From Eledone cirrhosa (Eukaryota), in assembly GCA_964016885.1 (NCBI GenBank), contig OZ024743.1, forward strand, positions 285,882,001 to 285,946,000: a stretch of 64,000 nt of DNA. Reading direction: 5' to 3'. The position numbers and the translations under genes are program-made. Positions 23,969 to 62,379 of this stretch are shown here, in pieces. The stretch's first letter is position 1, and each line of letters opens with the position of its first letter. The notes below the pieces were generated by a model. It was given only the letters and a program-made list of their open reading frames with translations. It was not told the origin of the DNA and made no database searches.

Positions 23969-24313
23969 TAATAGTATATTAACTATCAAATGATATATAT
24001 TATATAGTAAAATAAAAAATGTATATTTATTTATACATAGTATATATTATATTATTTATTATACATAAATTAACGATTTCATTATGTATTATTTATAATT
24101 TGCATGTAGATAGGTCTCTCTGGAAATAGGGGTGGGGGGCTGAGAGTATAATATAGCCGTGAGGAGGGGGGGGGCGGTCGCCCAAAAGGTTTGAGAAGCT
24201 CACTGACTGATTGCTGACTGACTGCTTGCTAATTGACTGCTTGCTTCTAACATACACTGAATCAACTAACTTGTCAAAAAAATACATTATAATTCAGCAT
24301 GCTAACTACAGTT

Positions 24314-40756: not shown

Positions 40757-41269
40757 ATGGAGCCTTATACAAGAAGAAGATACACAAGACTTGAAACGAA
40801 AGAAGCGATGAAGCTTTTATGTCTTCCAAGTTCGAACTTTGTATCAAAAATCCCAAATCGTCCAGCCGGTGGAGAAATCTATTTATTTCAGCCTAGACTT
40901 CGTATGTATTTAGATAATTGGCGAACAGATGGTTATCGCTGGTCGAACAGAGGGACATCTACTATGTCCCTTAACAGATGTCCAGCTTTACGAAAAAGTT
41001 TCTTCTATTTAATGACTAAGGAAGGCCAGAAGAACAATTTTCAAAAGCATGTCTACAGATTGCTGGACAGTGACCAGAAGGTAGTCATTCATTATATCGG
41101 CGACGAAAAATTGTGTACGGACACTTCGGTTGCTCCCAGTAGAAAAAAAAGCCGACATACTTCACATTCAGTTCGATCCTTTTTACCACTGCCTGAACAA
41201 TTTAACAGAAAGAAAGATTTGATTGAAAGGAACAATAAGTACATTATGAAGAAAACAGATGCCTTTGAT
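40757..41269 (+). CDS. CG-1-like (CAMTA/MULE-type) DNA-binding domain, coding exon 1 of cassette 1
   Basis: RPAGGEIYLF, WRTDGYRW, FQKHVYRLL and VVIHYIG resemble CG-1 motifs. Intact ORF ending at the phase-0 donor GAT|GTAAGT (GT at 41270). Confidence 0.8.
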
Positions 41270-42684
41270 GTAAGTTTTGTATTTGAATTTGAATTACGAT
41301 AATTAAGTTGTTTTTTTTTGGGGGGGGGGGGGGGCTATATACACAACCGAATTCAAGAGCAACATCACGTTTCTTGTTACGGATAGGCAACAAAAAATAC
41401 TAAAGTGTTTGTTTTTTTAATCAGTAGTATCATCATCGATTAATCTGATTGTCCATTTGAGAATAATATATTTTTAAAGTCCTGCCTTATGCTCGTGTTT
41501 TTCGATAGTGCATGTTAGAGAAAAAATACAGTTTCACATTTTTAAGGATCTTTCGAACGAAGAACTATGTAATATATGGTGAAGTTAGTATAATTTAAAC
41601 TGTTCCTAACTGGTTCTCGGTATTGAAAATAGAAACATGTTTATTATCAAGAAAATGATACGTTGTGCTGTATCGTTGACACAGTCCTATCTTAATGTAA
41701 ATATGTGCCAGAGCACATGGTATAATTAGTATTTTACTTAAGTACATAGCTACAAATTCATTATAGAGAAAACTGCATTTGTAGTGGGCTGGCTCATTGA
41801 AAGATCTATTAAGTGATGTGACAAACGTTTTTGCTAATGTTGTTCCTGGCCTACGTGATCGATTGGAATTATCTTATTTAACTTAAGGTGTTAATGCTCT
41901 TTGGGAATGTATGAGTACCACAACCTCTTATATTTGTACTCGTCTTTTGCTGGAGTTCACGATAAGATTGGAGAGAAACCCACTAAATGATCCGTGTTTA
42001 ATAACTCACTGTTCGCCGGTGTTTCGAAACAGGAAGTGAACTCTCAGCCAAGTCGACCCGCCCACAACAGACTTTAGTGCTTACAATGAAATTAAAGCTT
42101 TAAATAGTTTTAGTATTTTTTTCTTCCCAGACATTAGAAACAGCTGTACTTAATTCTAGTTTTATATTAAATCATAAGAAAAAAAATTTATTTTTGATTG
42201 GATTCATAAGCAGTCACTTCTGGATATTTTTTCAAAAGTGACCGCACATTATAAACTGTACAATTGATTAAAAAATGTATAGAGTTAACGCAAATGACAG
42301 AGCGCCTGATTAGATGATTAACTAAAACAAATACATGTGTAACTGAATTAGAATTCAATTACACCTTTCCAAACAAAGGGTCGAGAGGACTCTTCAGTAA
42401 TAAGGTCCCTAGTGCTGGTTCCCCCAAAATGCACTCAGGGCGCTATATTGAGAGAGAGAGGGAGAACGTGTGAGATGTGGCCCATCTGTGAGGTCAGTAA
42501 CTCCAATTAAGTATTGACCTGACCTATCCAGCGTTTACTAGCAGGGAGAACATACATTAAATGAAGCTGATGGATGTGTGGAGGGGGAAGAAAGAGAGAT
42601 AGTGTATATGTATAGATATAAACTGCCGAGAAAACCATCATGGGCCTAATTTCATAGTGAGAGTATAACTGTTTATACTGTATT

Positions 42685-42818
42685 TACGTCCCTTTACGGA
42701 CTGAGCTCAAATCCCGCCAAGGTTAACTTTGCCGTTCATCCTTACGGGGTCGATAAAATAAAGTACCAGTAATACACTGGGATAATTGCTGGCCTTGTGC
42801 CAAAAGTAAAAACAATTA
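42685..42818 (+). mobile_element. SINE copy (5' truncated)
   Basis: Same family core and tail. Confidence 0.8.
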
Positions 42819-44297
42819 TTTATTCATAACTCGCACTTCTTAACTTTGTACTATTACGGAAATAACTGTACCATTTTGTTTGCATTGTTACTTTGTTTTG
42901 GAAAGGAGGAGTGAACAAGTTCTGATGAGCTTTTAAATAATAAATACTTGAAAATAATCACTTCAGAATTCTTAGAGCAAAGAGAATGCACAAGAAAGAA
43001 AATCACACGCTTTCTTTTAAAATTATTCATTAAGGGGGAATAACTAAATCTTATAAAAAATGTTCACAGATGTCTTGATTATTGTCTAAAAGTCTACTAA
43101 CACGCCTTTTTTTTTTTTAGTTTGAATATTAGTATTTATATTAAAGTGAAATCGTAACCGTTGGAATATCTTTTTATTGGAGCAGGGAATTTCTACTCAT
43201 ATCTTCCAACAGGAATTAATAAATTATTTATAGATTATTGAATCCAGGTAAAAGCACTTATCATCTTTATGCCTACAAATATATTTTAAGTTATGGTGTT
43301 TATATAATTCTGCTTTCTCGGTCAATTTTGAGAAAAAAAACCAAGTTGCCAAGATAAGAGGTTCTGTAAATTAAGATAATCTTAAAGGCTTTGTAAATTG
43401 TTAGATATTTCCTGCTAGATAATGTTAATTGCCCTTGAAAAAGGTGTTCTTATTATTACTTACACCCTTGTCAGAATGTAAAATTGTTTTTTAAAATGTC
43501 TATATTTACATTATTCAAATATTCCATTTTTATTTCAGCCATATGATATTTATGATGTGTTTTGTTTTTTGTTTAATACATTCCTATATTAGAGAAAAAA
43601 GAACTGGCAAACTTTTGACACAACATAAAACTCACTAACTTAAATGATTTGTGATATCAATATTTACATTAGCACCAAACCATAGATTTACAGTTGTAGA
43701 GTATAGTTGGATTAAGCCCAGTGCATGAAACTAAATTCTGTAAGGCATTTAATCCAGGATTCTACCATCTCCACTACAGCAACCCATAAAAAGAAATTAG
43801 CAATATTAATTTTATACATTCTTAATAAAGCTACAAATCTTTTAGATGGTACATTCAAATGAATTAACCCCTGTATATGACTAGTACATATTTTATCAAT
43901 TGCAGAGAAATGAAGGAAACACTCAGAGTTTAATTTCTAGATTCAGCACTCTATTGTTTCTGCTATTCAAGCACACTAACGTAAGAAGATATGCCTACAT
44001 GTTTTGGCTGTGATATTTTTTGAAAGGGCATAAACATCATAGTCTTAGACTACCATTTCCGAATAGGCTGTAGGCAACATGGTTAATCATGAAATTAATA
44101 TTAAAACAACTTTTCCAGCATAAAGTACATTTTATAATATCCAAGATTCAGAACAAACAATACATGTTTTTTGTTAATTTACAAATATAAGTTCATCTTC
44201 AAATCTAATGATCCAGTTCTAATTATTTAAAGCTGTATTACTTGAGTAAACTTATTAATAAATTACCCTACTAATTCATTATTGTTATATGTTTTAG

Positions 44298-44367
44298 ATA
44301 AAAAAGGTGTGGGAAAAGGTGATCCCATCCCAAGCCATATACAACAGTTACCTTCTGGATAGTCATC
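44298..44367 (+). CDS. Predicted 70-nt second exon of the CG-1 cassette (IKKVWEKVIPSQAIYNSYLLDSH), phase 0 in, phase 1 out
   Basis: Branch-like CTAAT at ~44271, acceptor GTTTTAG, open in the frame required by the 41270 donor, donor C|GTAAGT. Confidence 0.65.
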
Positions 44368-44700
44368 GTAAGTATAATTAAATATTTATGTAAAATTACA
44401 CTTGTTACACATGTTTTCCCTTAGACTGTCTGTCAATTTATCTGTCTCTCTCTTTCTCTATTTTATTCAAAGTAATAAAAATGTAAATAATAAGTGACTT
44501 TCATTAAATCTTTGACTAATAGCAACAAAGTCGTGAGCTCAAAATGTTACACCTCCTTTGTATTGTGTCTCAAAACAAGGTTTTTCACTAGAAGTCTGTT
44601 TGTTGATCTGAAACCTATGTGCCACAATTGCATGATCAGTGGTCAGTAGGCCATTTAATTTGATATGGAATATTTTTTGTTTATTATGCATGAATATATG

Positions 44701-44733
<33 letters not shown>

Positions 44734-44749
44734 GTAGGTGTCTTGACAA

Positions 44750-44976
44750 AAAGTATCCAACCCACACTGTGAAGTGGTCATGTAGGAGACATGGCAAAAA
44801 GCACCCAACCCACACTGTAAAGAGGTTGGTGTTAGGAAGGGCATCCAGCTGTAGAAATATTGCCAGAAACAGTCCTATATGAACGGGACACGGTCACCCA
44901 ACCCAACTTGCGTTTAATGGGATAAACCCGTCTAACTCATGCTAGCGTGGAAAATAGACATTAAATGATGATGATG
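44750..44976 (+). mobile_element. RTE-related 3' tail repeat (other copies at ~52460-52700 -, 53810-54030 +, 54370-54690 +, 56065-56330 -, 63840-64000 +)
   Basis: CACACTGTAAA..GGTTGGTGTTAGGAAGGGCATCCAGC..CATGCTAGCGTGGAAAA..(GAT)n. Confidence 0.8.
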
Positions 44977-45489
44977 TATAGTAGTGAAAAATAAGAAGGT
45001 TTATATCCAAAGTTGGTAGAGAACTCAATCCAAAGAACAAGTTCAGTATAGAGTTCTCACTATAACCACACACAGGTTGAAAATCCTATTTAGGTGAAAC
45101 GCATGTTCTCAAGTATGGTTTGGTAATTATGGAATTAACTCCCTCTCTCTCTCACTATATATATATATGTATATATATTAGAGTATTTGTCACATGGTTG
45201 TATAATCATGGGTTCACTTATCAGTGACGTATTGTGCCATTGTGCAAAACACTTTACATTGCTCCAGTTCACTCAACTGGCAAAAAGGAGTTGTAGCTGT
45301 AATTAAAAGAGCTAGCTGAATCTCCCTGAAAACCATGTTATGGGTGCATGTTTTGGCATGTTAATTTCTCAAGCAGTCTGTTCCATTGTTTGGACAACTG
45401 GAACACTCGTCATCTGACATACACACACATATATATGTGTGGAAATACAGAGGTTGTGTCGTAACTGAAGGGTCCTCGCAACCTTTTCG

Positions 45490-46960
45490 GTATGGTTTCA
45501 ATGTGTATTGTGGGGTGATCATAGCTGAGAGAAATTATCCAAGTAGCTGAGAACAAATGTTCTTTACAGCACCAACTTGGTTTCCCAATCCTTTGTCCTG
45601 AATGTCTTCTGAATCCACCTGGCCATTCATCTGTACATTGCCATCATTGTGGAGATATGTGCATGAAACAATGTATCGTTGCTCATATCAATTCCCAGAT
45701 CACACACTGATTTTGATCGCTTTGGCTTCAGTGTGTCTGTTTATAATGAGTTTGTGGTAGTAGGTTGTTAGCAGAGGATTTGAAATGTTCCAGCTTTAAA
45801 CTGGTATCTAAATCTCACTGTAAGAGAGTAGCATTAGCCAGATTTTTTATTGCCTATGTCAGCATAGCTAGTGAGAGCAGCTGCCTGTTGAATTGGGGTC
45901 ATGGCCAAGAGAGCCACTACAAACATCAGTGGCCCCAGGATAATTCCCTGAAGGACTCCACTCACTATTAGTGTTTCTACTGAAAGGGAACCAACAGCCT
46001 AGTTTCTGCCAGTCATGCTCCTTTCTCCCAGGTTTCCAAACATGCTGAGGCCACATAGTTTGTGACACATCATTCTATGATTGATTTTATCAATTGGCTT
46101 TTGCAAAGTTGAGATATATCGCATCAACATTTAAGTGTTTTAGCAGCTGTTTCAATATCCAGTCATAATGCTATATGAGCTGTGTCAAGAAGCTTCTTCC
46201 TGGTTGAAAGCCATGCTGAGTGTTAGGTCATATTTTTCCAGGAATGTAATCAGTTTCTTTCTGATAATTTGTTCCATGGCATTGATATGTAAGGTCAGAG
46301 ATAGGGCTGTAATTTTTAACATTTGCTCAACTTCCTCTTTTATGGGTAGAGCATATGCCTTTCTTTAACTTTCTGGGGAATTTACCACTTGCAAGGAAGC
46401 TGTGGAAGAAGATCTGTAGTGGTTTTACTATAGGTCATTTACATGTGTTTAAGATGATTGCTGGAAGCCCACCAGGGCCAGAAGCTGAATTTGTGTTCAT
46501 TTCATTTATGGCTGATAGTACATCATCCTCTTTTATGCTGATGTAGTTGATGGTTGCCATTTCTATGTGTAGAGCTGTGGTGTCAAAAACTCATCTGGCT
46601 TATTTATTTGCATGTCCCATCACATATCTTTTGGGAGTCTGCAGTCAGTGATTCATCATCTTGGAACAGAGGCCCTGTCTTGTGGTGTACTGAAGCAGAT
46701 GATTTTGCAAATTTAAAGAGAGCTTTAGTGTTTCTTTTTATATCCCTCTTTATCTCACATGAATGCTTAAGCACATTCCCAATTTTTACCAGCGTCTTAA
46801 TTTAGTGGGATTTCTCGCTGTCTCTTATTTATCTTTGAATCCTTAAATTGTTTATTTAGGCAATCTTTGTTCTTTGTGTCATAAGAACTTTTATGTCACT
46901 GGGAATTTTATTTTGTGTGTGTTGACATTTATACTGGAACAAATTTCGGCAATAGTGGTT
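45490..46960 (-). mobile_element. Decayed CR1/Jockey-like LINE reverse transcriptase
   Basis: Minus strand remnants GFQPGRS, VDAIYLNFAKA and QHVWKPGRK, with many stops and frameshifts. Confidence 0.7.
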
Positions 46961-47379
46961 GACTCAAAATAATGGAAAATTCATAAAAAATATCCCTTGA
47001 ATTTAATAGATGGTGAGATTAAAAAGACAAAGGAACTAGATATATCTCAACTTAGGACTTTTAGATAAAAAGTTAAGTAGGATATTCTGTTCGTCAACAC
47101 CAATCAACATTTATGATCCAGGAGTACCAAACATATGCCACCATTATTGCAAATCTGTCAATCCTGTTCTAAAGCTCAAAAAAGAAAGTTCTGGTGAAAG
47201 AAACCTCAATCAAACAAGTTAGCTTGAATAAATAGCTGTCAATCAATAAATCAATATTCATTATTTCAAATGAAATAATAGAACAGAGAGAAATATGTGC
47301 ACATACATAAACCATATTAACATAATGTCTTGAGGGAGATAAAATAAGTGGCTTTTTCCTGAATTGCAGTGACTTTTGC

Positions 47380-48200
47380 ATTCAGTTCTTTTGTGACCAT
47401 TCTTTGGAATGTGGTCTCGGTCTTTGTCTCTGGCAGCAACCTCTTGATGGTTGATGTAGCAGAAGACACTCAGCATGGAAGTTACTAATTGGATGCCAGA
47501 TTTCATGACCAATCCATGACAATCGCCGGTTTCGTACATGAGCATTGTGATGTGACTGCTGTGCCTGTGAACATTTCTGCATTTGTTATGCGATCTTAGT
47601 ATGTTTGTTACACCACAGATAATGCGTAGACAATTTGTGTGAAATGTGTTCACTGCTCATTTTTGTGTTTGCCTATGAATGTCCATATAGGTGCAGAGAG
47701 TCAAGGATCAGCCATAGGAAGATACACATACCACCAAACAACAACGGAATGAGGTACACTAATTTCTGTCAACAGAACAGCTTGCATGACCTTCAGTCAC
47801 ATTTCAACTATAGTGATACTCATAAATGGACATGGTTACATTCTGCCGGCGATAAAAATCAACTGAGCCTAATAGCAGTAAAATCTAAATAGATTGGGTC
47901 CTTCACTAACTGTCGAGCAAATTCTAGTGTTGAAATAAATTCAGATCATAGAATTGTGTCCTGTCATTTTTGGATGAAACCGAACAGCGATCGAGTAAAA
48001 TATACTAAAAGATGTCTTTACAACTGGTCACAACTACCATGTGTCAAATCTACTTAATCAGACAGCTGATGATCAATTTCAGAGTAGTAACGAACTGAAT
48101 GATATCCTTATTAAAGCAGTCAAAAATACTACAATGCAAGTACTTGGAAAATGTGAGAGAAGCACACACCATAAGCCTAAATGGGTCTCACAAAATACAC
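47380..48200. mobile_element. RTE-like LINE fragments (C-terminal part on -, endonuclease part on +)
   Basis: FHTNCLRIICG and RRLSWIGH on the minus strand; NNNGMR, HKWTWLH and SDHRIV on the plus strand. Confidence 0.65.
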
Positions 48201-50809
48201 CATCACAATGTACAGAAATTGAAATATGTAAATGGCATGGGAAATCTCATTGCGGTTACAGCGGCAGATGAGCTTGTCAAATGGCTGTAAGATAGTTAAA
48301 ATAATTATTGTGTACCACTACTATTTCTGAGATACAACATATTTATCCATTCAGTAAGAAAATATACCTTTTTATTCCTACACCTGATGGATAGATGAAA
48401 TATCCACTTTAGCATATGTAAGATTATGTATATCTGTATATAGGGTAGATGGTCATAGTTGGGGAGCGAAATATGGAGAAACGAAGATTGAGAGAGGGGA
48501 AAAGAGTTGGCCACACAAAAAATTATGTATGTTTGTGTGTGAATGTATGTATAAGAGAGACTAAGAGTATCATCTTTATGTAAGTATGATTTACAGATAC
48601 AAGCTAAGTATTATCCATTGGACATAGTTCATATATTTGCTGTTACATGCATGACTTGTAAATATGTACATATTGTAAGAATGTAGGTGTCTGTGTGCTT
48701 GTGAAGGCAAACGTTTGTAACTGCAGTAATGACTGTTGGTTTATATAATAAAAATATATTCTTTTCTCGTGAGAGTTATAGTTGGTTGAATTTGTTGGGA
48801 GTCATTTTATTCAAAATATATGCTTAAGAGTATATAAAGCAAACCATTTGTAGTGTAGAATGGACTATTTGAGCTACAGTCCAGTTACAAACAAACAACA
48901 GCTTTAGTATTATAGAGACAGAAGTAGCTAACTGGTACTATACAAAATTTTGTGAACTATTACTGCTCTATAATTATAGTTGTTTATACAATGATGACAA
49001 GAAGCAAATGTAATTAACATCAAAACAAAAGCATGAAATTATAAAATGTTACAAGAATACACTCTGTAAATGTAGGAATGTATGTGAGATGCACCTCCCC
49101 CGGTCCATCTGAAAGGTCAGTAACTCTGATTAACTACTGACTTCGTCTTTGATGGTCCGTCCAACTTTTGTTAGCATAGAGGATAGCTCAAGATTAGCAG
49201 CTGTGTATATCAAAAGTAGAAAAATTGTGATTGATGTAGACCAGCACAAACCATATGAAATGGCTTTAGGTTCTTTTGTAAAAACGAAATATTAATCAGC
49301 TTAGATCAATAAAAGATGAAGTATTTACAGCAACCCACTGTTGGTTTGTGCATTTTACAGTATAAAAATATTTATAAGTAATAACGTATAGTTATACACT
49401 AGTGGGCTCATGCTGTCAATATTGAAAGCATCTCACATATATTAAAACTTATATGTATGGTTATGCAAAAGAATGGGGGAGTTTAAAGTCTCTACAATGG
49501 ATGAGTGAAGTGAAAGGCGGTTTCTTAGATGGATAGATAACTGGCCTTTGAAATCATTCTAAATATATGCCGTTAGGACATTAGAGAGCAATGGCGTGCT
49601 AACATTTGTTGCTATATTATTTACATTTGCTGTAAATATATAAAACTTAATACGAAATATATATGATCGCTATCTGTTTTATTGTAAACACTTGTCTGAG
49701 CAATGTATTTCGTAGTGCGGCTTTAAATTTTACCGCTTTCATCTAGTTTTTACTTCTCTACGGCTCTCTCCTCTCTTTATCTATCCATTTCCCTTTTCTC
49801 TCGTATTCTATTACACATTACAACGTGCATAAGTCGTTAAGGGCCGAAACACTCGTCGTTGTGTTTCTTCTGTGAAGACCCGCTATCCAGCTTTCCTGGG
49901 AGTGTCTTGCCATTATAACATCAAACAGTTTCTTTTACTTCTCCCCCTACTCCCTCGAAACACGAGAGCGTTTATGAAGAATAGGAAGAGAGGATTTGTT
50001 AGTAAAGTTGTAAGAGTGAGAAAGAAGGGGAGATAAAAATAAAAAAAGAGAGAGAGAAATAGATAACCACAGAATGAGAAATTTCATAAAAAGTTACCCT
50101 CAGGTAATGAATATATGTAGATACAGATGTATAATGCGTATTTTTATATTGAATTAAGGGTACAAGAAACTTAATTAAAACATGATATCCTAAAAATGTT
50201 TATACAGACTAGCATTTCAACGATATTAGAAATCATAAGCATTCAACTGAAGTATATAGTAAAGATAGATAAGCTGCTCACTGGACTTGAACTTCATATC
50301 TATCACTTATTGGACGACCGTGTATTAATTGCACTACAGTGTGTCCTACAATGTAATCGGTAACACGGTCAGTCCTCCCTCCCTTTCGAATTCGTTCTTG
50401 TAATGTTTAATGTTATTTACATTCTGAACTGATTCATATTCTATAGTTTGTTTTAGCAATCAGAGTTAAGGTTATGCCGGTGTAATATATTTCCTTATTT
50501 ATATTAGTTGAACTTCTTCCGACATATTTGTTAACTGACAAAGTGTTGGTTATTCTATCCTTTGCCGACACGTTGCCTATCATCTGCCTTCCGTAATTTT
50601 GCTCGTTGATAATCACGTGACACACTTATTGCCTTCCATACATTGTTTAATTCCTTCATACGGAATATATATTTAATACTTTTAAGGTAGCAATGTGGTA
50701 TCGATATTTCACTTTTGTTTTTGGAAACAACCAGTCTCTATTCCTGACATTTTCCAAATTCTAAGAATGTCTTGTACTATAGCAATATTTTATTAAATTT
50801 CTTTCCATT

Positions 50810-51062
50810 ATGCTGTCCGAGTGTATTGTTAAAGGCTGTCGCTCAAACAGCTGCATAAACAAATCAATAGCATTTTTTCTACTACCTTGGGACAACATAC
50901 AACTGCGGACAACCTGGGTTAGGTCGGCTGGTTACGATCCACTCGATGCCAATGACGTGAAACACATCACTAGGGAGCATAGCATTTGTAGTCTCCATTT
51001 TGTTAATAACCAGAGCGACTTACTACAGGGGAGCATTCCGACTCTGAATCTTCCAATTCAAG
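50810..51062 (+). CDS. THAP zinc-finger domain exon (cassette 2)
   Basis: C-x4-C ... FFLLP ... W ... ICSLHF ... SIPTL (C2CH plus an AVPT-like box). Ends exactly after the domain at the phase-1 donor AAG|GTACGA (GT at 51063). Confidence 0.88.
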
Positions 51063-51646
51063 GTACGATTATTTATTCTCTTCGTTAAAACAAACTCATA
51101 CTCAGAAATAAGTTGATTTTTCTCTATACTTCGCATTACTAAAGTGTATAATATCCAATATTAATTTGTTTGGCGGCTGCGGATGTATCGTTTCCGACAC
51201 CGTGCTAATGTCAACATGTTTTGCTTATTTTTTTTTGTGTTATTTTGTTTTGTTTATGCGACTGACTTCAGTCTCAGTCATTTTTTATCTTTTAGTTGCA
51301 AAGAGACGTAATTCAACGCACTGAACTCGACATGACTGTTTAATGTTTTTTGTTTTCTTTTTTCTATTCTTGAGGTAAAATAAAACATCGTTCAACAGAA
51401 ATGTAGAATATATTAATGAAATAAAATAATAGAAATTATTCCGAGAATGTTCAATTCAGATACTTTCCGTCGGCGATTTTTTTTAGTATAATGTACCAGA
51501 TTCATTTTCTCAAACTTTTGCTAATACCATGTTTGTTTAGCAGACGCGGAAGACTTTTTTTTATTGATAATGTGCTGCGGCCAGATTGTTGTTATGTTGT
51601 TTAACCCTTTTATCATTTCTAATGAAATACATTATTTAATCTGGGC

Positions 51647-52305
51647 GGTGGATTGGCAGTATCGGTAGAGGGTCGGATGCCATGCTTTCCAGCATAGTTA
51701 CGTCCCTTTACGATCTGAGTTCAAATCCCTTTTGCCTTTCATCCTTACGGGGTCGATAAAATAAAGTACCAGTAATGCACTGGACAATTGCTGGCCTTGT
51801 GCCTAAAGTAGAAACAATTATTTCATCTGAATTAATGAAAAATTTGGGATTTACCAAAATTATTTATCTTTTCATTATTAAGATGGTATATGTAATGTAA
51901 TTTATCAAAAGGTTGAAAGGTTTTAATTTAGATAGAAGCACTTTAAAATTCATGGATTTATTTCATAGAATCAGAAGCTGTTTTCAGATAGTTGGTATCT
52001 AAAAGAGTTAAGAGGTTTGTGCCTGTATATCATACATTTGGCAGTATCGGTAGAGGGTCGGACGCCATGCTTTGCAGCATAGTTACGGCCCTTGTCATTC
52101 TGAGTTCAAATCCTGCCGAGGTTAACTTTGCCTTTCATCCTTACAGGGTCTATAAAATAAAGTACCAGTAATGCACTGTGTAATTGCTGCCTTGTGCCAA
52201 AAGTTAGAAACAATTGTTAAATTTTAAGGGCAGTGGATTGGCAGCATCCCTAGAGTGTCATACACCATGTTTTGCAACATAGAGTTATGGCCCTTTACGT
52301 TCTGT
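51647..52305 (+). mobile_element. Cluster of three SINE copies (51647-51818, 52038-52214, partial 52234-52305)
   Basis: Same family as 23583-23768. Confidence 0.8.
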
Positions 52306-53651
52306 GGAAATAGGCGAGACAAATTATTTCCACAGAAATTATGCAAGAGACCAATGGAGAAAAGATTCCTGAAGATTAGTTTGAGGAGTCGCAAAGAAAC
52401 GCCAAATAGAAAGGCATTGGCACTACTTAACATTGTCGGAAATAATATTGATTGTAGATCATCATCATCATCGTTTAACGTCTATCTCCCACGCTAGCAT
52501 GGGTTAGACGGGAGTTGTCCCACTTCAGGCAGGATTGGTCGGGTGACCGTGTCTCGCTCGTATCTGGCAGGTTTTCTCTATGGCTGGATGCCCTTCCTAA
52601 CACCAACCACATTTACAGTGTGGGCTGGGAGCTTTTTACCGTGTTTCCTACACGACCACATTACAGCGTGGACTGTGTTTTTTTTTTGTTGTGACACCTA
52701 CACAACCTCATTTGTTTGAACTGGATGTTGTGGTACCAACATAACTTTATAGAGAAAGGGTGGTGTTGGCGGGAATGGGGGGTGGAGAAGGGGTAGTGGG
52801 TTGAGGTGTATGTTTGGTTTAGAGGGGCCTACTGACTGTAGGTTAACTTTGCATGTAGGGAAGGCGGGTCTTCTGTATAACTGTGTGGTGCCAAAGATCT
52901 CGATCCAGTGACATTGTCTTAGAGAAGTGCAAGTGTGCAAGGTCAGAATTTATCATGCTGTCGCAGGTTTTTCAGGGTCTGCCTACTCCGTAACTTCCAT
53001 CAATTTTGATTGCCCTGCACTTTTTTATATAGCTGTCGTCTTTCATGCGTATCACGTGACCATACCAACGTAATCTTCTCTCAAGATCAATAATGATATT
53101 CTGACAACACCTTAGGCAAGTGTTTTTGATAGCGCCAACTCAATTTATGAGTCGATTTAGTAGGCAGAAACTATATAAAGCCCATCATATATGTGTGTTT
53201 GTCTCTGCCTCTACACATTCATTACATAAATGCAAATAGTGAAATTAGTCCCACATAAACAAAGGGTTAGAAGTGTGAAGATCCATACCTTAGTGAGGGA
53301 AAGGTATCAAATTGTAAAAAAATTTTAAATCCATTCCATCATTAAAAAATGGATGTAAAACTGATGGTAATGATGATGATGAAGGTCTTGTGGGCAGTTC
53401 TTACTGGTCTTGAAAAGCACTATGTAAGTCAAATTTGTATTTATGTTACATGGCATTATTACTATATCTCCCACAAATTTGAGATTTTTAATTTTCCATA
53501 TTTTTAAAAGAGGCTGCAACCTATTTAAAAGTTTAGATCACCAAAGATTATATTGCTCAGGTTGAATAGCAATGCTCTTGATATTTTGATAATTCCCATC
53601 TGGGAGATAAAAATTTTTCAAACATTTAGGTGTTACAATTCCATTAATGAA

Positions 53652-53790
53652 GGCACATGGCTTAGTGGTTAGAGCATTGGGCTTGCAATCAAAAGGTTGT
53701 GAGTTCAATTCTCGGACCGGGTGATGTGTGGTTTCCTTGAGCAAGATACTTTATTTCACATTGCTCCAGTTTACTCAGCTGTAGAAATGA
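53652..53790 (+). mobile_element. Second tRNA-derived SINE family
   Basis: A box TGGCTTAGTGG, B-box-like GAGTTCAATTC, then CCTTGAGCAAGATACTT..TTGCTCCAG; no acceptor stem. Confidence 0.7.
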
Positions 53791-56700
53791 GATGATAGGA
53801 CTGGGGTCCCTATCATTCCACTGCGAAGTGGACGTGTAGGCGCCACGGAAAAAATGCACCCAGCACTCACTGTAAAATGAGGGTGGTGTTAGGAAGGGCA
53901 TCCAGCTGTAGAAATCAAGCCAAAATCAGTTCCTGTATGAGCAAGACAAGGTCGGCCGACTGGACACTGCTCACAACAGGGCAACCCGTCTAACCCATGC
54001 TAGCGTGGAAGAACGGACGTAAAACGGTAAAATGCGTGGGTATGAACATGTGATGCATATGAAGGTTGATAGCTGCATAAAAAGGTGCAGGGTGCTTAAA
54101 GTTGATGGAAGATATGGAGTTAGGATGAGGTGATAAAAGTTGACCTTGAACAATTGCACCTATCAAAGGCGATGACACTGGATCGAGATCTCTGGTGTTA
54201 TGCAGTAATGCAGAAGGGCTCGCTTTCCCATGTGCACAAGTTGAAACATACATCTGGTATGCACCATCCTCCCCCACCTCCCACGTCCTAACACCCAACC
54301 CTTCACCAGATTAGTCCGCCACTCCACCATCTACCTCTCCTAACCCCCATGCACCTCCTCCACCCCAGCCCTCACTGTAAAGTTGTCTTTTTGGTGCCAT
54401 GATAAAAAGCACTCAGTCCACACTGTAAAGTGGTCATGTAGGGGACACGACAAAAAGCAATCATTCCACACTGTAAAGTGGTTGTTTAAATGTCACGACA
54501 AAAAGCAGCCAGTACACACTGTAAATGAGGTTGGTGTTAAGAAAGGCATCCAGCCGTAAAAACCCGGCTAAAATCAGTTCTGTATGAGCAAGACATGGTC
54601 ATCTGATCTGGCTTGTCTTCAAGGGACAACTTGTCTAACCCAATCTTGTGTGGAAAATAGATGTTAAACAGTGATGATAATGATGATGATGACATTCAGC
54701 CCATGGGATTTGAGCCATTTGTAGGGAGCTGGGCTGCTGACAAAGAAATATTTGTCATCTCTGGCAGCTTGTTTTACTGATGTATCATATGATACTCTGG
54801 CTGTTCCAGTGTCTCAGCATCCCTATCACCAATATTTTGGTTACCTTAAAACATTTTAGGGGGGAAAAAACAGCATTCTCTGTTAGAATGTGTAATTAAA
54901 AGAGTGCACCCCATTTTTCCCTCTTGTCTCATTTTTAGTTATAATTCATTTCATTTTTTATTGTATGTGTATGTATAAACACCTGCCAATCAGGTGATAG
55001 AACTATGTATAGTCTTTTAAATTTAGTGTTCTATTGTTTTAAGTAGACAAGATATACCACTGAATTTCTGCATTTTCCAGAAGCCTCCTCTAATCACGCA
55101 TCCATACAAAATCAGTAGAAGTTAGCCAGAACTAGTTTTTCTGTCATTAAAATTACCACTGTACTAAGACATTGTGACCAACTATTTCAGCAGTATTGCC
55201 ATACGTAATCAAGTAATGACTAGAATGAAAATGAACGCAATAAGGTAATAAAATGAAAATGAATGGTATCCGATTGATTTGTATTTATAAATTCCAAATG
55301 ATTTATTTATAAAAAGAAAGAAAATAGAACATTTATGGGGTATCAATTGCCTTTCTACATATCTGCAGGAGTTTGGTTTATCTAATATATATTTGTGAAA
55401 GTTGGTTTGTGTGGATGTCCTGTTTTTCTTTTATGTAACACTCTTTTGTTCTTCCTCATGTGTTTTATCTCTCTTCTCACTATTCATTTACTCTCTCTAT
55501 TGTTATCTCTCAATACTTTGGAATACTTTTTAAACAATTTGTCGTATATCAAAAGTTATTTCATTAAATAGAAGGAAAAAAAGATATATGCATGTACATA
55601 CATACATACGTATGTAAAGATGTATTAGTGATGCTGTTGATTTTATTTGGTGGTAAGGGAAAGGGGCATGCGGTCAGCTAGCGCAGAAATGTGCACTAGA
55701 GGCAGGTGCATGCCTGTCAGTGACTTTGTCAATTGGACGAGTAGCTTTTTTCTGGATGAAATCTAGTATGTATGTGTGGCAACAGCACCATTCCAAATGT
55801 TAGAGCACTATATTGTGGGGTTTTACCTAAACATTGTAGAGAGGCTGAAGTTGTTGAAAGCTGATATAATTTCTGAATGGGAAGTACCAATCTGCTAGAA
55901 TCAGTTCTAGCTATATGTAGGATATACATTCGCCATGAAAGACACTCCAGTGGAAGTGAGGACTAGCATTAGAGTAAACACAAGGGTTCTTCTAATTGTG
56001 TGTTGTACATGTCTAAGGGTGGTGAGGTAAGATACACATACAACTAACAAAGCAAATGAACAATTATCATCACTGTTTTACGTCCATTCTTCCACGCTAG
56101 CATGGGTTAGACGAGTTGTCCTGCTGTGAGCAATGTTAAGTCTGGTGACCTTGTCCTCATACGGGAACTGATTCTGGCTTGATTTCTACAGCTGGATGCC
56201 CTTCCTAACACCAACATCACTTACAGTGAGTGCTGAGTGTTTTTTTTTCCGTGGTGCCTACATGACCACTTTACAGGGTGGGCTGGGTGCTTTTTTGTCA
56301 CGACACCTCCACGACCACTTTGCAGTGGGAAGGGATAGAGGCATATTATCTATATGCTTCAGCTTTGGCTTGTTCCCGTGGGAAGTCGGGTCTTCTGTGT
56401 TACTGCATGGTGCCAGAGGTCACAGTCCTGTGTCATCGCCGTTGAGAGGTGCAATTGGGCAAAGTCCGCTTTTATCGGCTCATCCCAGGTATTTTCGGTA
56501 CCCCCACTCCATGGCTTCCATCAACTTTTAGTGCTCTGCACTTTTTTATGCGGTTGTCATTCTTCATACGCAATAATAAAAAATAAATCAGATCTTTCAC
56601 GATTTGGTTTGCCATTCGACTGGTTTGTGGTCAGTTAGTCTTAAAGAGTTTCGGCGACCATGTTGATGCTAGGACGTATTTCAGTTTATTACTAATTATC

Positions 56701-57094
56701 GATCTGTTGGCCGAACTACTATGTTGCAAGACAAAAGCAAGAACACATACACACTGAATATGAATAGATTCAAATAGTATATTGTGCGGAATTGCAGTTA
56801 TTATGTCCACTAACTGTGTCATTTTTTCCTGGGCAACGTTGGGTACTACTGCTAGTTAGCAAAATAATATTTAAAATTGTTTGATAATGATTAAAGACAA
56901 TTTTTGTAATCAATTTAAATGAATGTAAAATAATTAAGTTGGATAGTAATGGGATCGGTCTGTTGATTAGAGCGACACCAATAAAATCCCCGCAGAAAAG
57001 TGGAAAATAGATTATTTGATGTCCCATGTGTGTGGCTAATAACTAACAAAAATCAAAAAGCTGTTCTGTGCGATCAGGTCTGACAATCCCCGAT

Positions 57095-57390
57095 TATGTA
57101 CGGACACGCGATTGGCGGATAATGGCGAAATTTTGAACTACGTCGCCTCTACTCAAAACAAAAGATCAAATACAGTATATATAAAGTTGGACATACACAA
57201 TTTATTTTCTGCTAGGGCAAGTCAAAATAACTGCGATTGTTTTTCAGTAATGCACTGGGTAATTGCTGGCCTTGTGCCTAAAGTAGAAACAATTATTTTT
57301 TTCTTTTGCTTAGCGCTGGTTATGACATCAAAGATCATAGGATACGGGAAACCACGTGTCTGTACGGAAATCGGAAATTTTCCGGAAAAT
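57095..57390 (+). promoter_or_regulatory. Promoter-like CpG patch upstream of FLYWCH cassette 3
   Basis: ATTGG (57111), AATGGCG YY1-like (57121), GAACTAC (57135), three CGGAAA/CCGGAA ETS-like sites (57365-57388). Confidence 0.5.
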
Positions 57391-57643
57391 AATTAAAATT
57401 GTAATCGTTTTATTAAATTTTTAATAATAGTGTAGTTGTCTTAATTTTCCTAATAAGAATCTGAACAGTTGTCTTCTGAGAAATAATCATCTGCGGAAAT
57501 TTCACTGATCAACAATTCATCGATTAGCAAATTTATCTACAAGCATTTGATCAACATATTCACCGAATATATGCACAAAACAATTTTAAAAGCCTATGTT
57601 CAAGCCGATTTTTTTTTGATTTTTTTTTATAAGCCTTTAAAAT

Positions 57644-57854
57644 ATGGTTCTTCAGTTTTTTGAATCAGAAAAGGGAAAGAAAAAACTGTTTGTTGGCAAC
57701 CACTTCTTTTTTAAAGAAAAACAACTCAAATGGACAGTACATTGGAAATGTGAGAAATACCAAAAAACTAAATGTCGTGCACGAGTGAGTACAGTCGGTG
57801 ACACTATAGTCAGTCAATCAAATGAACACAATCATGCTGCCGATGTAGAAGTTT
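57644..57854 (+). CDS. FLYWCH zinc-finger exon (cassette 3)
   Basis: SEKGKKKLFVGNHFF..WKCEKYQKTKCRARV..EHNH; phase-1 donor T|GTGAGT (GT at 57855) immediately after the domain. Confidence 0.88.
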
Positions 57855-59353
57855 GTGAGTAATAAAAAACCTTTACTGAAATCTTATTAATTTGCTAATC
57901 GGTGAATTGTTGTCGGGCAATTCTTGAAACCAGCACATAATGTATTTATTCTTCCTTTTTGAAGACAGCCAAATTTCAAATGACACGCTACTGCTATTTC
58001 TAGCAGCTCGATTGACCATGTAGTAGAGGTTGGCTCGTGTTGGATTTTTGGTAAAGGACGAAAGTATTTGAAAATGAATATTCTCGTAATAATCTTTATT
58101 GCATTGCATAAAAGTCTTAACGTCTCTTTAAGTTTGATGCTGAGTTACGTCCCTTTATGCACAAAACTTGAAACTTTGGACGGTCGCATCCCAAAACTAC
58201 CTCAAGCGAAACATTGTATAAGAAATCCTTCCACGTTCGCCAAACCACTATCTTCTACTGTACCATATTTTTCTTTTGATTCCATTTTAATAATTAATTT
58301 TATTATGTAAACACGGCGTTAGATTAATGGCATAAATGAGACTGCGTGTGCTTAATGGTGTTTAATACTTATAGACGAAGTGTCAAAACCGGTGTGAACT
58401 TATGTAATTTCAAGCCGAAATTTGCAATTTCTCATTTTCATTGAAATGTGTCGAAATTAGATACTTTATTCAGAATTGTTTCAAGGTGTATAAAATAACT
58501 TTAAATCTTTATATCCACGGTTTCCTTCACCATACTTTCAGGAATCGAAGCTAGTGTTGGCCAAATTATAAGAGGTTCGTATACTGTGATAGGCTTGTCT
58601 AGCAAAAACATTCCACGATCAACAACTGTAAGTGGTTCTATTAATAAATAATTTACTAAGCCTCGCTCAACGTGCTTAGAAATTGCATACAATATCTGAA
58701 AAGTTACGATATGGCTGCATGATCAGGGCCGACCTGGGGCTAAAATACATAACTGTACCTTTGATGGGGGTCCCGTCCCGTTAGCTGTCGTGGTGATCAC
58801 TACATAATATTGATAAATAAATTACTTTTGAAAGTTGTCTCTGAATTTCACCCATGATTCTCTTTTGAAAGAAACTGAACCACTTACGTTTGAGCTTGAA
58901 ATATCGAATGTAGGTGGTGTGTAATGTATAAAATATCTATAGCTTAAGGTTATGCGGGTAAATTATGCCCGTCTTGCATTGGGGAAATGTATTTTGAATG
59001 AATTTAACCAGAGAACTAAAAGGCGAATAATTTCCGAGAGTTTTGGTGGTCAGATTCATTTAACATAAAAAAAATCATGAAAAACAATTCACCGCCAAAG
59101 CGAGAGGGTGTAATAGTAAAAAAATTACCGAAATGCTAATCCAAAGAATCATCTTAAACACCAGGCATAAAATATATATATATTTTTAAACTTGGAGAAA
59201 AATACAAATGATGGTCGAGCTTTCGAAGTTAATGTTTGTGGATCAAAGAAAACTCATGGCGCTTGCGCGAGATTATCGGTTCGTTATCTTGGTGTCACAT
59301 GCGTTGTGACTGTTGTTGTTTTCTATAATTTTACTATTTTATAAAGGTACATC

Positions 59354-59842
59354 ATGGCGCCAACACTTACACGAAGGAAATATGAAGCTGGGTTTAAGTT
59401 GAATGTTATAGCATATGCAAAGAAGCATAATAACTGTGTTGCTGCGCGACTGTATGGTGTAACGGAGAAAGTAGTAAGAGACTGGAGATCAAAAGAAGAA
59501 ATATTAAAGAATATCCCTAAGAGCAAATGTGCAATGAGAAGGGGTAGTGCACACTGGCCGAATTTAGAGAATTATTTAGCAGATATAGTTTGTGAGTATC
59601 TACAAAATGGATATGGTTTATCAAAAAGTAAAATCCGCATTATGGCACTCCAGTGGGCAAAAGAAAATCAAGAGTATTGTAAAGAATTCAAGGCCACCGC
59701 TTCATGGTGTAGTCGATTCATGGAGAGACATAATTTAATATTGAGGCCGAAAACCAAATTAGCGAAAAATTTACCGAGAGAGATTGACACCAAAATTACT
59801 AATTCTCGTTGTATATTACTGCAACGTAAAAAAAGTAATTAA
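59354..59842 (+). CDS. Brinker-type HTH + CENP-B/Tc5 HTH (pogo/POGK-like N-terminus) with no DDE domain (cassette 4)
   Basis: RRKYEAGFKLNVIAYA..AARLYGVTEKVVRDWR; WPNLE..FKATASWCSRFMERHNL. Candidate phase-1 donors C|GTAAAA (59826) and A|GTAATT (59835). Confidence 0.85.
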   Translation: MAPTLTRRKYEAGFKLNVIAYAKKHNNCVAARLYGVTEKVVRDWRSKEEILKNIPKSKCAMRRGSAHWPNLENYLADIVCEYLQNGYGLSKSKIRIMALQWAKENQEYCKEFKATASWCSRFMERHNLILRPKTKLAKNLPREIDTKITNSRCILLQRKKSN

Positions 59843-60119
59843 TTTATTTATATCCCTTTTTCTTTTTCATCTGTAATTTTCATTCTCTGTCTATCGTCTA
59901 GTACAAGACAAAAACATTTTGAGAGACTGTTTGAAGTCGTCTTATATGCCTAGTCGCATTCTAGGCCGATACGGGGTAATTTTGTCGGTGCATTATTACA
60001 TTTGGGATATACTTTGCTTGACACCGTAATTTCAACTGCATAACGCTTATATTAGCGATTGTTACGTGGATGGATGAAAGTTGTATATAGCATTGTTTAT
60101 AATTAAAAAAAATAGTACT

Positions 60120-60275
60120 AACTCTCGAGACAAAATAGAACTACTTTCCGGAACCTATAACGGTAGAAATTTCTTGCGTTCTGGGTCCCCGAACTACCTT
60201 CTTAGAAGTGGTCTATATAAGAATGAACCCCGCGATATGTGCTGGCTCTTTCGGCGAATCTCCCTCGCTATCTGG
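60120..60275 (+). promoter_or_regulatory. Promoter-like CpG patch upstream of FLYWCH cassette 5
   Basis: TCTCGAGA (60123), GAACTACTTTCC (60138, ZNF143/SBS-like), CCGGAA (60148), second GAACTAC (60191). Confidence 0.45.
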
Positions 60276-60984
60276 TAATGCACCTTTGAAATTCTGTCCG
60301 TTGGAAATATAAGGCAACATTGACCTGAGTTTTTATACTGAGAAACAACGTGTCAACCTTTCATTGGTTGATTCCTGCTTTGCTTTTTGACTATGTAAAT
60401 GAATATTGATGGGAGAAACTATAGTGGATTAAAAGTGTTTTGTTCTGCTTTCTAACTCATGGCTGAAAATTCTCCCTGACGGATTGAATCACTTTTAAAA
60501 CTATTTTGTGTTCCTCTACAATATGCTCTTGAGTGATGTTAGTTATTAGAAAGGTGTTTGATAATTTGGTGCCATTTAATGAAATTGTATTTCTATCCTA
60601 GTTTCTTATGAGATAAAAATGTATTAGGATTTCAAATTGTTTGTTACTTAAAAGTTACATGTTGTTTGGTGGTATCAGTGGGACTCCAACACAATGTAAT
60701 TAACATACGGTTATCATTTGGTAGTTGAAGATAGTGTTTTGACTGATTATGGAATTTCGAATAAAACTATTTAATATCCACTACCCATTTCAAGGGGCAA
60801 GTTAAGCATGATAAATAGATAATTGGGTCCGGCAACTAGGTTAGATACATTTGGCACAGCCGATTCGGCGCAAAACCTATCTGACACCGGATGTTTTAGC
60901 GACGTAATTTTGTTTTTATTCTACATAACAAGTAATCTTTACTACTCAACGATAAAGCTCGCCTTAGTTACTTGGGCTTCGTTT

Positions 60985-61441
60985 ATGGATATGATGGCTT
61001 GTAAAGTGTTGACGAAACGCGGTAAAGAAAAATTTGCGCATAAAGGATATCTATACATCTTTGACAAAGAAAGCAAAACTGACAGTAATTTCAAATTTTG
61101 GCGCTGTGAGGAAAAACATCGATGCAAAGCCAGGCTTCATACTGTAGCTGGGATGGTGGTAAAAGAGCTTAACTGCCATTCGCATGAAGCTTCTGTTGCA
61201 AAACTAGCAGTTGCACTTTTCAAAACGAATATAAAAAAGAGAGCAGCAAAAACTCGTGAATCCCCGACTGTAGTTGTTAATGAATGTTTGACAAACATAT
61301 CCCAAGCGAATCTGGCCACCATTCCTGGCATGTCTGCTTTGAAAAAAATAATACGTAGAAAGCGTGATTTAGTAAACAATGCTCCCAACAAGTCAACCGA
61401 TTTACATCCAAATTACTACAATATTACAACTCATCGACCAG
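60985..61441 (+). CDS. FLYWCH zinc finger plus MULE linker region (cassette 5); start at ATG 60985, 60991 or 60994
   Basis: TKRGKEKFAHKGYLYIFDK..FWRCEEKHRCKARLH..CHSH; phase-1 donor CAG|GTGTGG (GT at 61442). Confidence 0.85.
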
Positions 61442-61923
61442 GTGTGGATGAAATATTTTTTATTGTGTGATGTATCAGTATAGTACACACTCCGTTTATT
61501 AATAATATTCGCTGGTATAAAAAAAAAAATCATTTTAATTATTTCATTGTTTTCTCCTGTTGTATGTTTATGATTTTTACATGTGTATATGTGCCCCCTT
61601 CTCTCTCGTATCCGTACGTTTCGCGTGTGACGTGCCAATACCAGATTCTCTCTTGCACGCTACATTTGATTTCTCTTACCACGTCTATTCTTTGTCATTC
61701 AGGTACATGAAAAGCGCACATCCATCAAACCATACTAGTTTCATTTCTTTGCAGGCATCATACAGCCAGCCTTTTGTTCGAGGCGTTTCATTCATTTTAG
61801 CGAAACATGAGCGAACATTAATTTTAAGCGAAATATATACTATCGTACATTTGGCCGTGATTTACGTCAATGGGCACAACCTTGATATTTTTCAAATCAA
61901 TTGGCATACGTAGCTAACCCACC

Positions 61924-62379
61924 ATGGACATTATTGTTTCGATTCGTGGCAAAAACAAAATAGCCTATAATGGTTTCATCTATAGAAAGAATAAAGCTTC
62001 TCAAACTACAATTGCATGGCGTTGTGAAGTGGAGGGTTGCAAAGGACGGTTGAGTACCTCATTTGAATACGAAAAGGATAGAAATTGCACTGAGAAAGGA
62101 ATACACTCGCATGCTCCCAAATCTGCTAAAGCTGGCATGGAAAAAGTTAAAGAAAAAGTCTGCAAACCTGCTGTAACAACGCATGAACCACCCAGAGGTA
62201 TACTCCAAGATGCCATTGCTGGTTTACCAAACAAACTTGCAGCAAAGATAGGATCAGGAGCAAAATTAAAGCGTACCATATCTAGGAGGCGAAGAGCTAT
62301 GAGGAACTACCCTCCACCCTCTCAATCAGCTGCATCCATCGTTATTCCTGAATCCCTGCGGTCTATTTTCACGGGCTAG
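61924..62379 (+). CDS. FLYWCH zinc finger plus MULE linker region (cassette 6)
   Basis: Kozak ACCATGG; SIRGKNKIAYNGFIY..AWRCEVEGCKGRL..IHSH; only a weak non-canonical phase-1 donor G|GCTAGT (62375) before the stop. Confidence 0.85.
   Translation: MDIIVSIRGKNKIAYNGFIYRKNKASQTTIAWRCEVEGCKGRLSTSFEYEKDRNCTEKGIHSHAPKSAKAGMEKVKEKVCKPAVTTHEPPRGILQDAIAGLPNKLAAKIGSGAKLKRTISRRRRAMRNYPPPSQSAASIVIPESLRSIFTG

Follow-up and report, generated by a model that had tools for sequence, protein, structure and literature searches.

Alternative 5' coding exons with different DNA-binding domains and a shared BTB region: a probable modular transcription-factor locus in Eledone cirrhosa

Can a single gene give one effector region several DNA specificities by exchanging its first coding exon? 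The question is raised by a stretch of 64,000 nucleotides (nt) of Eledone cirrhosa (contig OZ024743.1, positions 285,882,001 to 285,946,000 of the forward strand), referred to here as the window, in which an earlier reading made from the letters alone (hereafter, the sequence-only reading) had described six intact open reading frames (ORFs) as interchangeable first exons carrying transposon-derived DNA-binding domains. Among such domains, THAP and CENP-B/pogo are of transposase origin. Here it is proposed that the locus is, in all probability, a modular transcription-factor gene in which alternative 5' coding exons (cassettes) with different DNA-binding domains are spliced onto one BTB constant region. 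The constant region was located just past the window, all six cassettes join it in frame, and orthologous gene models exist for the CG-1, THAP and Brinker/CENP-B cassettes. The sequence-only reading spoke of one gene; its picture of variable cassettes on one constant region stands, and the locus is one member of a multi-locus family, with sister genes in octopus and cuttlefish built alike.

Six cassettes and their constant region

All six ORFs lie on the + strand where the sequence-only reading had placed them, encode its four domain types, and exceed the curated cut-off in a Pfam scan. The CG-1 cassette consists of two exons, as had been read from its exit through a small second exon: V1a (40757..41269), which begins with an ATG, encodes the CG-1 DNA-binding domain (CG-1, E-value 3.6e-9) and ends at a phase-0 donor (GAT/GTAAGT at 41270), and V1b (44298..44367), a 70-nt variable exon entered in phase 0 and left in phase 1 (donor at 44368). 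V2 (50810..51062) has an ATG and a THAP domain (3.7e-9) before the phase-1 donor AAG/GTACGA at 51063, and V4 (59354..59834) has an ATG, a Brinker DNA-binding domain (BrkDBD, 1.3e-13) and a Tc5/CENP-B helix-turn-helix (HTH) domain (HTH_Tnp_Tc5, 1.1e-7) before the phase-1 donor AAA/GTAATT at 59835. The other three are candidate variable exons with a FLYWCH domain: V3 (FLY1, 57644..57854, 1.5e-15), from its ATG to the phase-1 donor TTT/GTGAGT at 57855; V5 (FLY2, 60985..61441, 2.9e-11), which holds the 5' 152 codons of a MULE transposase (FLYWCH and a helical region) before the phase-1 donor CAG/GTGTGG at 61442; and V6 (FLY3, 61924..62374, 7.2e-9), an intact ORF with an ACCATGG start, a GC donor at 62375 and an alternative phase-1 GT at 62198. 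All six exits claimed as phase 1 are present in the sequence with agreeing phases, and a scan of 20-65 kb in window numbering gave no cassette besides the six.

Of 431 background ATG ORFs of at least 60 amino acids (aa), 52 (12%) contain a phase-1 donor within the final 30 nt. The five single-exon cassettes all have one near their end, for which chance would give about 0.12^5 under a loose donor pattern that was drawn post hoc to include the observed sites; phase-1 exits in five of five are unlikely to have arisen by chance.

The sequence-only reading had presumed, past 64000, an unseen shared C-terminal effector with a phase-1 acceptor, and this was found 1.1 kb past the window in the downstream neighbour sequence (locus L001), into which the window numbering is continued for coordinates above 64000. 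The constant region comprises four + strand exons (65129-69260): C1 (65129-65193), with the phase-1 acceptor and a phase-0 exit; C2 (65916-66115), encoding linker, phase 0 to 2; C3 (67206-67536), encoding linker and the first part of the BTB domain, phase 2 to 0; and C4 (68271-69260), encoding the rest of BTB, an acidic/Ser-rich tail and the stop. The phases 1-0-2-0 are consistent, and the encoded order is linker, BTB/POZ and acidic tail. The last part of the shared first intron (62375..64000, + strand) closes the window, the constant exons following past its end. All six cassettes join C1 in frame and reach the same stop, with model lengths of 722 (CG-1), 612 (THAP), 598 (FLY1), 688 (Brinker), 680 (FLY2) and 678 (FLY3) aa.

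The BTB domain is split by an intron, and Pfam therefore recognises it on the joined orthologs but on neither C3 nor C4 by itself. The THAP ortholog has nine PDB matches at E <= 0.01, namely six ZBTB-family BTB domains (one of them a ZBTB17-BCL6 fusion), two Kelch-type BTB domains and one THAP; none of the nine is named as a Tramtrack-group protein, and the best match, ZBTB9, is weak (E 8e-5). In three orthologs scanned, BTB is internal and accompanied only by THAP/Brk/Tc5/DDE_3 domains. The ORFs were also considered as 3' terminal exons of an upstream BTB gene, in the manner of mod(mdg4), which was rejected: the window has no BTB match upstream, and the orthologs have the reverse order.

The Octopus and Argonauta isoforms used for comparison are annotation models, and the search with exon C4 returned five clusters of them. 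In Octopus vulgaris four consecutive records share one constant region under CG-1 (719 aa), THAP (609 aa), HTH+DDE_3 (911 aa) and Brinker+Tc5 (686 aa) N-termini, while O. sinensis (LOC115209547) and O. bimaculoides (LOC106872006) have CG-1 forms and CG-1- or THAP-plus-DDE_3 forms. Orthologous models of the three Octopus species join CG-1, THAP and Brinker/CENP-B N-termini to one constant region; in Argonauta CG-1+BTB is present, and GAB1599697.1 is 70% identical to the window model. Window proteins are 83-86% identical to the Octopus orthologs, with full-length values of 85% for CAI9720206.1, 83% for CAI9720207.1 and 83% for CAI9720209.1 (O. vulgaris). V1a alone is 90% identical to residues 1-177 of CAI9720206.1, V1b corresponds to residues 169-195 of the CG-1 isoforms, and V2 shares 70 of 84 residues with CAI9720207.1. 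All orthologous isoforms meet at the C1 peptide SNEYDKILET. The codon at the junction takes one nt from the cassette and two from C1, and the residue that it encodes is the same in the orthologs: R for CG-1 (NSYLLDSH/RSNEYDK, the ortholog's LLDSHRSNEYDK), G for THAP (LNLPIQ/GSNEYDK) and S for Brinker (QRKK/SSNEYDK, ortholog CAI9720209.1). The CG-1 and THAP cassettes have no second DNA copy in the source genome, and the Brinker cassette has only a tandem paralog and one 65% match.

These comparisons bear on the explanation that each cassette is a domesticated single-exon gene in its own right, fused to BTB only through artefacts of automatic annotation, which is highly improbable. Each ORF does have its own ATG and stop, the isoforms are predictions, and single-exon versions occur in databases (P0011, P0118); on the other side, the junction residues agree between species, the same fusions stand in separate annotation records of four species, complete fusions are encoded by decapod-relative Logan contigs barely longer than the coding sequence, and one contig of a sequencing run is joined at predicted splice sites.

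That contig comes from a comparison of three of four listed sequencing runs, none recorded as RNA, with positions 57550-67549 (V1, V2 and exon C4 lie outside). Runs X1 and X2 are continuous across the Brinker donor and DNA-like. In run X4, of a kind not recorded, a 744-nt contig exits a Brinker exon at a GT homologous to 59835 and resumes at a C1-like acceptor, the joint falling exactly on the predicted GT and AG; donor 59835 is therefore favoured over 59826 for the Brinker exon. A further X4 contig, over C3 (67209-67449), shows no differences. Short low-depth X4 pieces cover FLY1 and FLY2, none is listed over most of FLY3, and they are evidence neither way; the FLY1 piece extends 14 nt past the donor, too short to count as bridging.

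In the proposed modular gene, each cassette, with its own ATG and a different DNA-binding domain, would have its own promoter, and as a rule one cassette per mRNA would be spliced to the phase-1 acceptor at 65129 and so to the four constant exons. The products, of 598-722 aa, would consist of a DNA-binding domain (DNA binding is predicted), a disordered linker, BTB/POZ and an acidic tail. BTB may pair isoforms and recruit chromatin cofactors, so that specificities could be combined, an expectation drawn from the ZBTB-type sequence resemblance and from general BTB biology.

Some observations weigh against this arrangement. Some ortholog models chain CG-1 or THAP to an extra HTH+DDE_3 exon (P0003, P0004 and P0010 chain two variable exons), and one paralog model opens with a leader exon, the same leader peptide being joined to a THAP exon or straight to the shared exons (P0117, P0067); therefore an own promoter with one cassette per mRNA is not universal, and the earlier claim that each cassette is its own first exon is not borne out for all of them. 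Further, the Brinker part of the X4 contig carries all 16 listed differences of the tandem paralog at 80895 (93% identical to V4) and not the letters of the window exon. The same proteins could also arise from one upstream promoter with a non-coding or short leader exon and mutually exclusive splicing, or from separate transcripts joined in trans as in mod(mdg4). The chained and leader-exon models speak for such a scheme, as do an AG acceptor-like site immediately 5' of the Brinker ATG and the placement of the X4 contig, which leads from the downstream Brinker paralog onto C1, upstream of that paralog. It is nevertheless unlikely: cassettes and constant exons are all collinear on one strand, the X4 joint is simpler as the paralog (Brk2) joined to its own C1' (C1 and C1' differ at 3 of the first 30 nt), and the contig is unspliced over 152 nt 5' of the ATG. 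The X4 joint is evidence for the type of junction and the choice of donor, in the simplest reading within the neighbouring unit; trans-splicing as its origin was not adopted, being indistinguishable from cis-splicing in unit 2.

The HTH+DDE_3 exon of the Octopus orthologs (P0003, P0004, P0009, P0010) is a whole Tc1/IS630-like exon used as first or internal exon, and its transposase origin was examined here, as for FLY2 and FLY3. Judged by eye, the position of its first catalytic aspartate is substituted. No counterpart of this exon was found at 40-65 kb of the window; an HTH-only cassette related to it lies at L041:2723-3199.

FLYWCH cassettes and their MULE relatives

Are the three FLYWCH ORFs cassettes as well? 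FLY2 and FLY3 can be traced through their sequence relatives to MULE families, in line with the earlier suggestion that transposase 5' ends are the source of the cassettes; such an origin of CG-1 and STPR is conjectural. The longer homologs of FLY2 are 49-65% identical to it, and six of seven have a MULE domain. The three genomic relatives of FLY2 that were fetched are all broken (9 stops and 12 frameshifts in 313 codons), and the five fetched for FLY3 hold 5 stops and 8 frameshifts in 404 codons. Dispersed copies of FLY3 are 76-90% identical, with a dS of 0.07-0.29 between FLY3 and the dead copies, and four dispersed DNA matches extend over the FLY1 exon, three of them at 71-76% and the fourth at 67%. 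No catalytic MULE sequence was found after FLY2 or FLY3, which bears out the absence of a catalytic continuation in the sequence-only reading. Its statement that terminal inverted repeats (TIRs) are lacking does not hold at FLY3, which is preceded by a TIR-like left end of the MULE family behind it (61810..61861, + strand; borders approximate). This end has many dispersed matches of 42-62 nt on both strands, and in locus L062 it recurs in inverted orientation immediately behind an internal fragment of that MULE family; no partner for it was found in 314 kb of sequence examined. Active or recent autonomous DNA transposons were rejected as an explanation of the array, given the missing catalytic remnant after FLY2/FLY3, the single unpaired end at FLY3 and the single-copy state of CG-1 and THAP.

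It is a distinct possibility, if the less expected outcome, that the CG-1, THAP and Brinker/CENP-B core holds and that some or all FLYWCH ORFs are undecayed truncated MULE insertions, lying unspliced in a long first intron. Several findings point that way and away from FLYWCH cassettes: the dispersed family copies at 67-90% identity, the transposon end retained at FLY3 together with its weak GC donor, the lack of any FLYWCH isoform of the window locus among the five clusters found with exon C4, the lack of a BTB fusion in the FLY2 homologs (0/7), and a ratio of non-synonymous to synonymous substitutions (dN/dS) of 0.67 on the FLY3 branch, where purifying selection is not significant (p 0.21). 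On the FLY2 branch dN/dS is 0.46 (p 0.009); both estimates use few copies and a crude majority ancestor. Insertions left to decay are also at odds with the state of the window copies: all eight fetched relatives are fragmentary or broken, whereas FLY2 and FLY3 have 0 stops and 0 frameshifts and are open from ATG to donor. Moreover, the three FLYWCH ORFs share the orientation and phase of the conserved cassettes, and BTB proteins of three paralogous Octopus loci have annotated FLYWCH N-termini. From these sequence comparisons FLY1 and FLY2 are probably used as spliced cassettes, while for FLY3 the chances of such use appear evenly balanced. FLY2 and FLY3 are either recent captures or debris, and FLY3 would be a young relic of a MULE 5' end. 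The earlier claim of one gene with alternative 5' exons on a shared C-terminal region is upheld for CG-1, THAP and Brinker/CENP-B on orthologous models, the FLYWCH cassettes being without ortholog or read support.

Under the modular-gene proposal, the array would grow when a DNA transposon inserts in the same orientation upstream of C1, after which a phase-compatible donor behind the inserted DNA-binding domain would cut off the catalytic part.

A multi-locus family in coleoids

The source genome has at least 19 matches to the BTB exon, six of which were left out of the cassette survey. The earlier suggestion to look downstream for more cassettes and constant exons led, besides the four constant exons, to five more units in tandem within 140 kb, each with DNA-binding cassettes upstream: CENP-B and Brinker; THAP, CG-1 and CENP-B; and three STPR cassettes are among them. 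The unit-2 model is open over 664 aa, and phase-1 donor candidates were present at all six cassettes checked in the tandem units.

Elsewhere in the family, the O. bimaculoides paralog LOC106877732 has isoforms numbered to X36, and the 24 examined all have an identical 534-aa BTB C-terminus under 20 different N-terminal domains. Their heads include 11 different THAP starts (one also with psq), 3 CENP-B/Tc5, 2 DUF3504, 1 FLYWCH and 1 Brinker, the remainder being 2 without a Pfam match at 1e-4 and 2 short forms. In the source genome, 14 cassettes matching these N-termini (60-100%) lie on one strand in the 110 kb upstream of the orthologous BTB, where the junctions inspected are mostly phase 0. 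At LOC106879774 the heads are FLYWCH (three) and DUF3504 (two). THAP+BTB and DUF3504+BTB both occur in clusters that contain Acanthosepion pharaonis proteins, and in one of these clusters THAP- and FLYWCH-like heads sit on one constant part, in Logan contigs of 2.4-2.8 kb. A point on the other side is that about 30 kb upstream of four BTB paralogs at contig C4:297.95-298.33 Mb contained no cassette recognised among the filtered ORFs.

Beyond coleoids, the profile search met generic BTB proteins below about E 1e-14, and the Atlas search gave generic BTB clusters only. Weaker BTB matches with long N-terminal regions (P0159, P0176, P0188, P0157), including one from Lymnaea and the DUF3504+BTB protein P0188, may extend the family beyond cephalopods.

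Some further observations concern the sister loci. A second large locus (contig C11:580435-760326) has a BTB exon and, roughly 80-180 kb upstream on its strand, FLYWCH and DUF3504 cassettes that resemble, by eye, the isoform N-termini of LOC106879774. At contig C4:234741853-234758290 (L087, L088), three THAP half-exons end in ...CSK at phase-0 donors; in Octopus isoforms such half-exons join a shared exon starting HFVGG, which apparently gives the last histidine of the THAP zinc finger, and the arrangement looks like the same combinatorics carried out within a split domain. For unit 3, a Logan protein carries THAP on a shared CG-1-like exon that precedes BTB (P0128, P0266; L005:4636-4869, L007:4274-5200); in another member of its cluster a different N-terminus sits on that CG-1-like exon, which gives two DNA-binding domains per protein.

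The tandem Brinker/CENP-B exons (59354-59834 in the window and L002:6895-7375) have 3 synonymous and 21 non-synonymous differences, a dN/dS of about 2 from few changes; the constant exons have values of 0.41-0.57. Units 1 and 2 are 96% identical over C2 and some 400 nt of intron (L001:1980-2561 and L003:2199-2771), the C1 and C3 regions being at about 80%, and gene conversion around C2 is possible.

Relation to known systems

Clustered protocadherins and UGT1A have tandem variable first exons spliced to shared constant exons, and the octopod locus is similar in that tandem variable 5' exons meet one acceptor in one phase. In those genes, however, the variable exons are one-fold paralogs that arose by duplication, whereas those of the window belong to four unrelated Pfam domain types. 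Separate promoters for the variable exons are a further mark of such clusters, and would be shared by the octopod locus under the present proposal. ZBTB factors have an N-terminal BTB followed by a C2H2 zinc-finger array, a layout that the octopod orthologs do not have; Cullin3-adaptor BTB-BACK-Kelch proteins have BACK and Kelch after BTB, and neither domain was found in the 48 octopod-family proteins scanned with Pfam (0/48).

A close comparison is with mod(mdg4) and lola of Drosophila and Lepidoptera, which likewise have a common BTB region and many variable DNA-binding exons, FLYWCH among them; in the available excerpt of PMC4667647, mod(mdg4)-like genes are defined by a BTB upstream of (N-terminal to) FLYWCH. 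The octopod arrangement is its mirror image, with the variable exons 5' and BTB C-terminal to the DNA-binding domain. By the same excerpt (PMC4667647), mod(mdg4)/lola have mainly duplicated FLYWCH exons, whereas the octopod exons mix CG-1, THAP, FLYWCH, Brinker/CENP-B, psq, DUF3504 and STPR, and mod(mdg4) uses trans-splicing with some exons on the opposite strand; the octopod cassettes found are all on the strand of the constant exons, and the X4 joint is ambiguous. A Tramtrack-group BTB also marks mod(mdg4)-like genes; the PDB matches of the octopod BTB are mostly of ZBTB type.

Capture of a transposon-derived domain upstream of a BTB protein, as an isoform-specific N-terminus, has been described for KCTD1 isoform b (Crypton DUF3504; PMC3212892, available excerpt), and DUF3504+BTB also occurs in the octopod/cuttlefish family. 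KCTD1b is one capture with one extra isoform in that account (PMC3212892), whereas the octopod family has tens of cassettes from several superfamilies at several loci. In vertebrate host-transposase fusions of the KRABINER type, transposase DNA-binding domains are likewise spliced to a host regulatory domain; the excerpt of 10.1101/2020.05.07.082677 reports 106 separate genes with KRAB as the commonest partner, whereas the octopod system has one host module and many transposase heads at one locus, and the words 'BTB' and 'first exon' are absent from that text. In the octopod orthologs, Tc5/CENP-B, THAP and DDE_3 are joined in frame to BTB in annotation models, as in a host-transposase fusion.

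In the excerpt available of Mukherjee and Moroz 2023 (PMC10027918), which also gives the transposase origin of THAP and CENP-B/pogo, most Octopus THAP and CENPB factors carry BTB/POZ; the authors treat BTB as belonging to the transposons and each protein as a gene of its own, and the word 'isoform' (0 occurrences) is absent from the excerpt, as is any description of a shared constant region. These THAP-BTB and CENPB-BTB proteins are very likely proteins of the present family. No description of a 5'-variable BTB architecture was found in the Creative Commons-licensed PMC and bioRxiv literature (subscription papers may exist), and a coleoid gene family of this architecture is apparently undescribed.

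With this family, cephalopods would have arrived at the mod(mdg4)/lola design a second time, independently and in mirror image, using several unrelated transposase folds. Octopus 'THAP', 'CENP-B', 'psq' and 'FLYWCH' factors counted by the dozen as separate expansions may be isoforms of a few loci, which would change gene counts; such isoforms are hidden from 3'-end expression data because all share one 3' end. Cassettes of very different ages stand side by side, some shared with Argonauta and one still with a transposon end, and therefore transposase capture and the birth of a transcription factor can be tested step by step. In a lineage known for protocadherin and zinc-finger expansions, the family is a candidate extra source of regulatory diversity.

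A more speculative proposal, on the doubtful side, is that coleoid BTB loci act as 'capture platforms', which recruit the 5' ends of arriving DNA transposons as first exons and so give an adaptive transposon control like that of KRAB zinc fingers, later re-used as a combinatorial code through BTB heterodimers. Such a head would go on binding the ends of its parent element and deliver a BTB corepressor to them. In this view FLY3, which has a transposon end and a low dS, would be caught midway through capture, and the two Brinker exons would be on their way to different specificities.

Other features lie next to the cassettes. A 155-codon ORF at L005:3896-4360 (- strand) faces the unit-3 THAP cassette in head-to-head orientation and has the look of a conserved host gene, presumably GSKIP-like. 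The first part of the window (1-20100) is a tandem array with a period of about 2.15 kb and 19 alternating tRNA-Leu(TAG) and tRNA-Leu(AAG) genes on the + strand, one more tRNA-Leu gene is found at 24313, and a degenerate hexamer tandem repeat of about 1.5 kb occupies 31066-32632.

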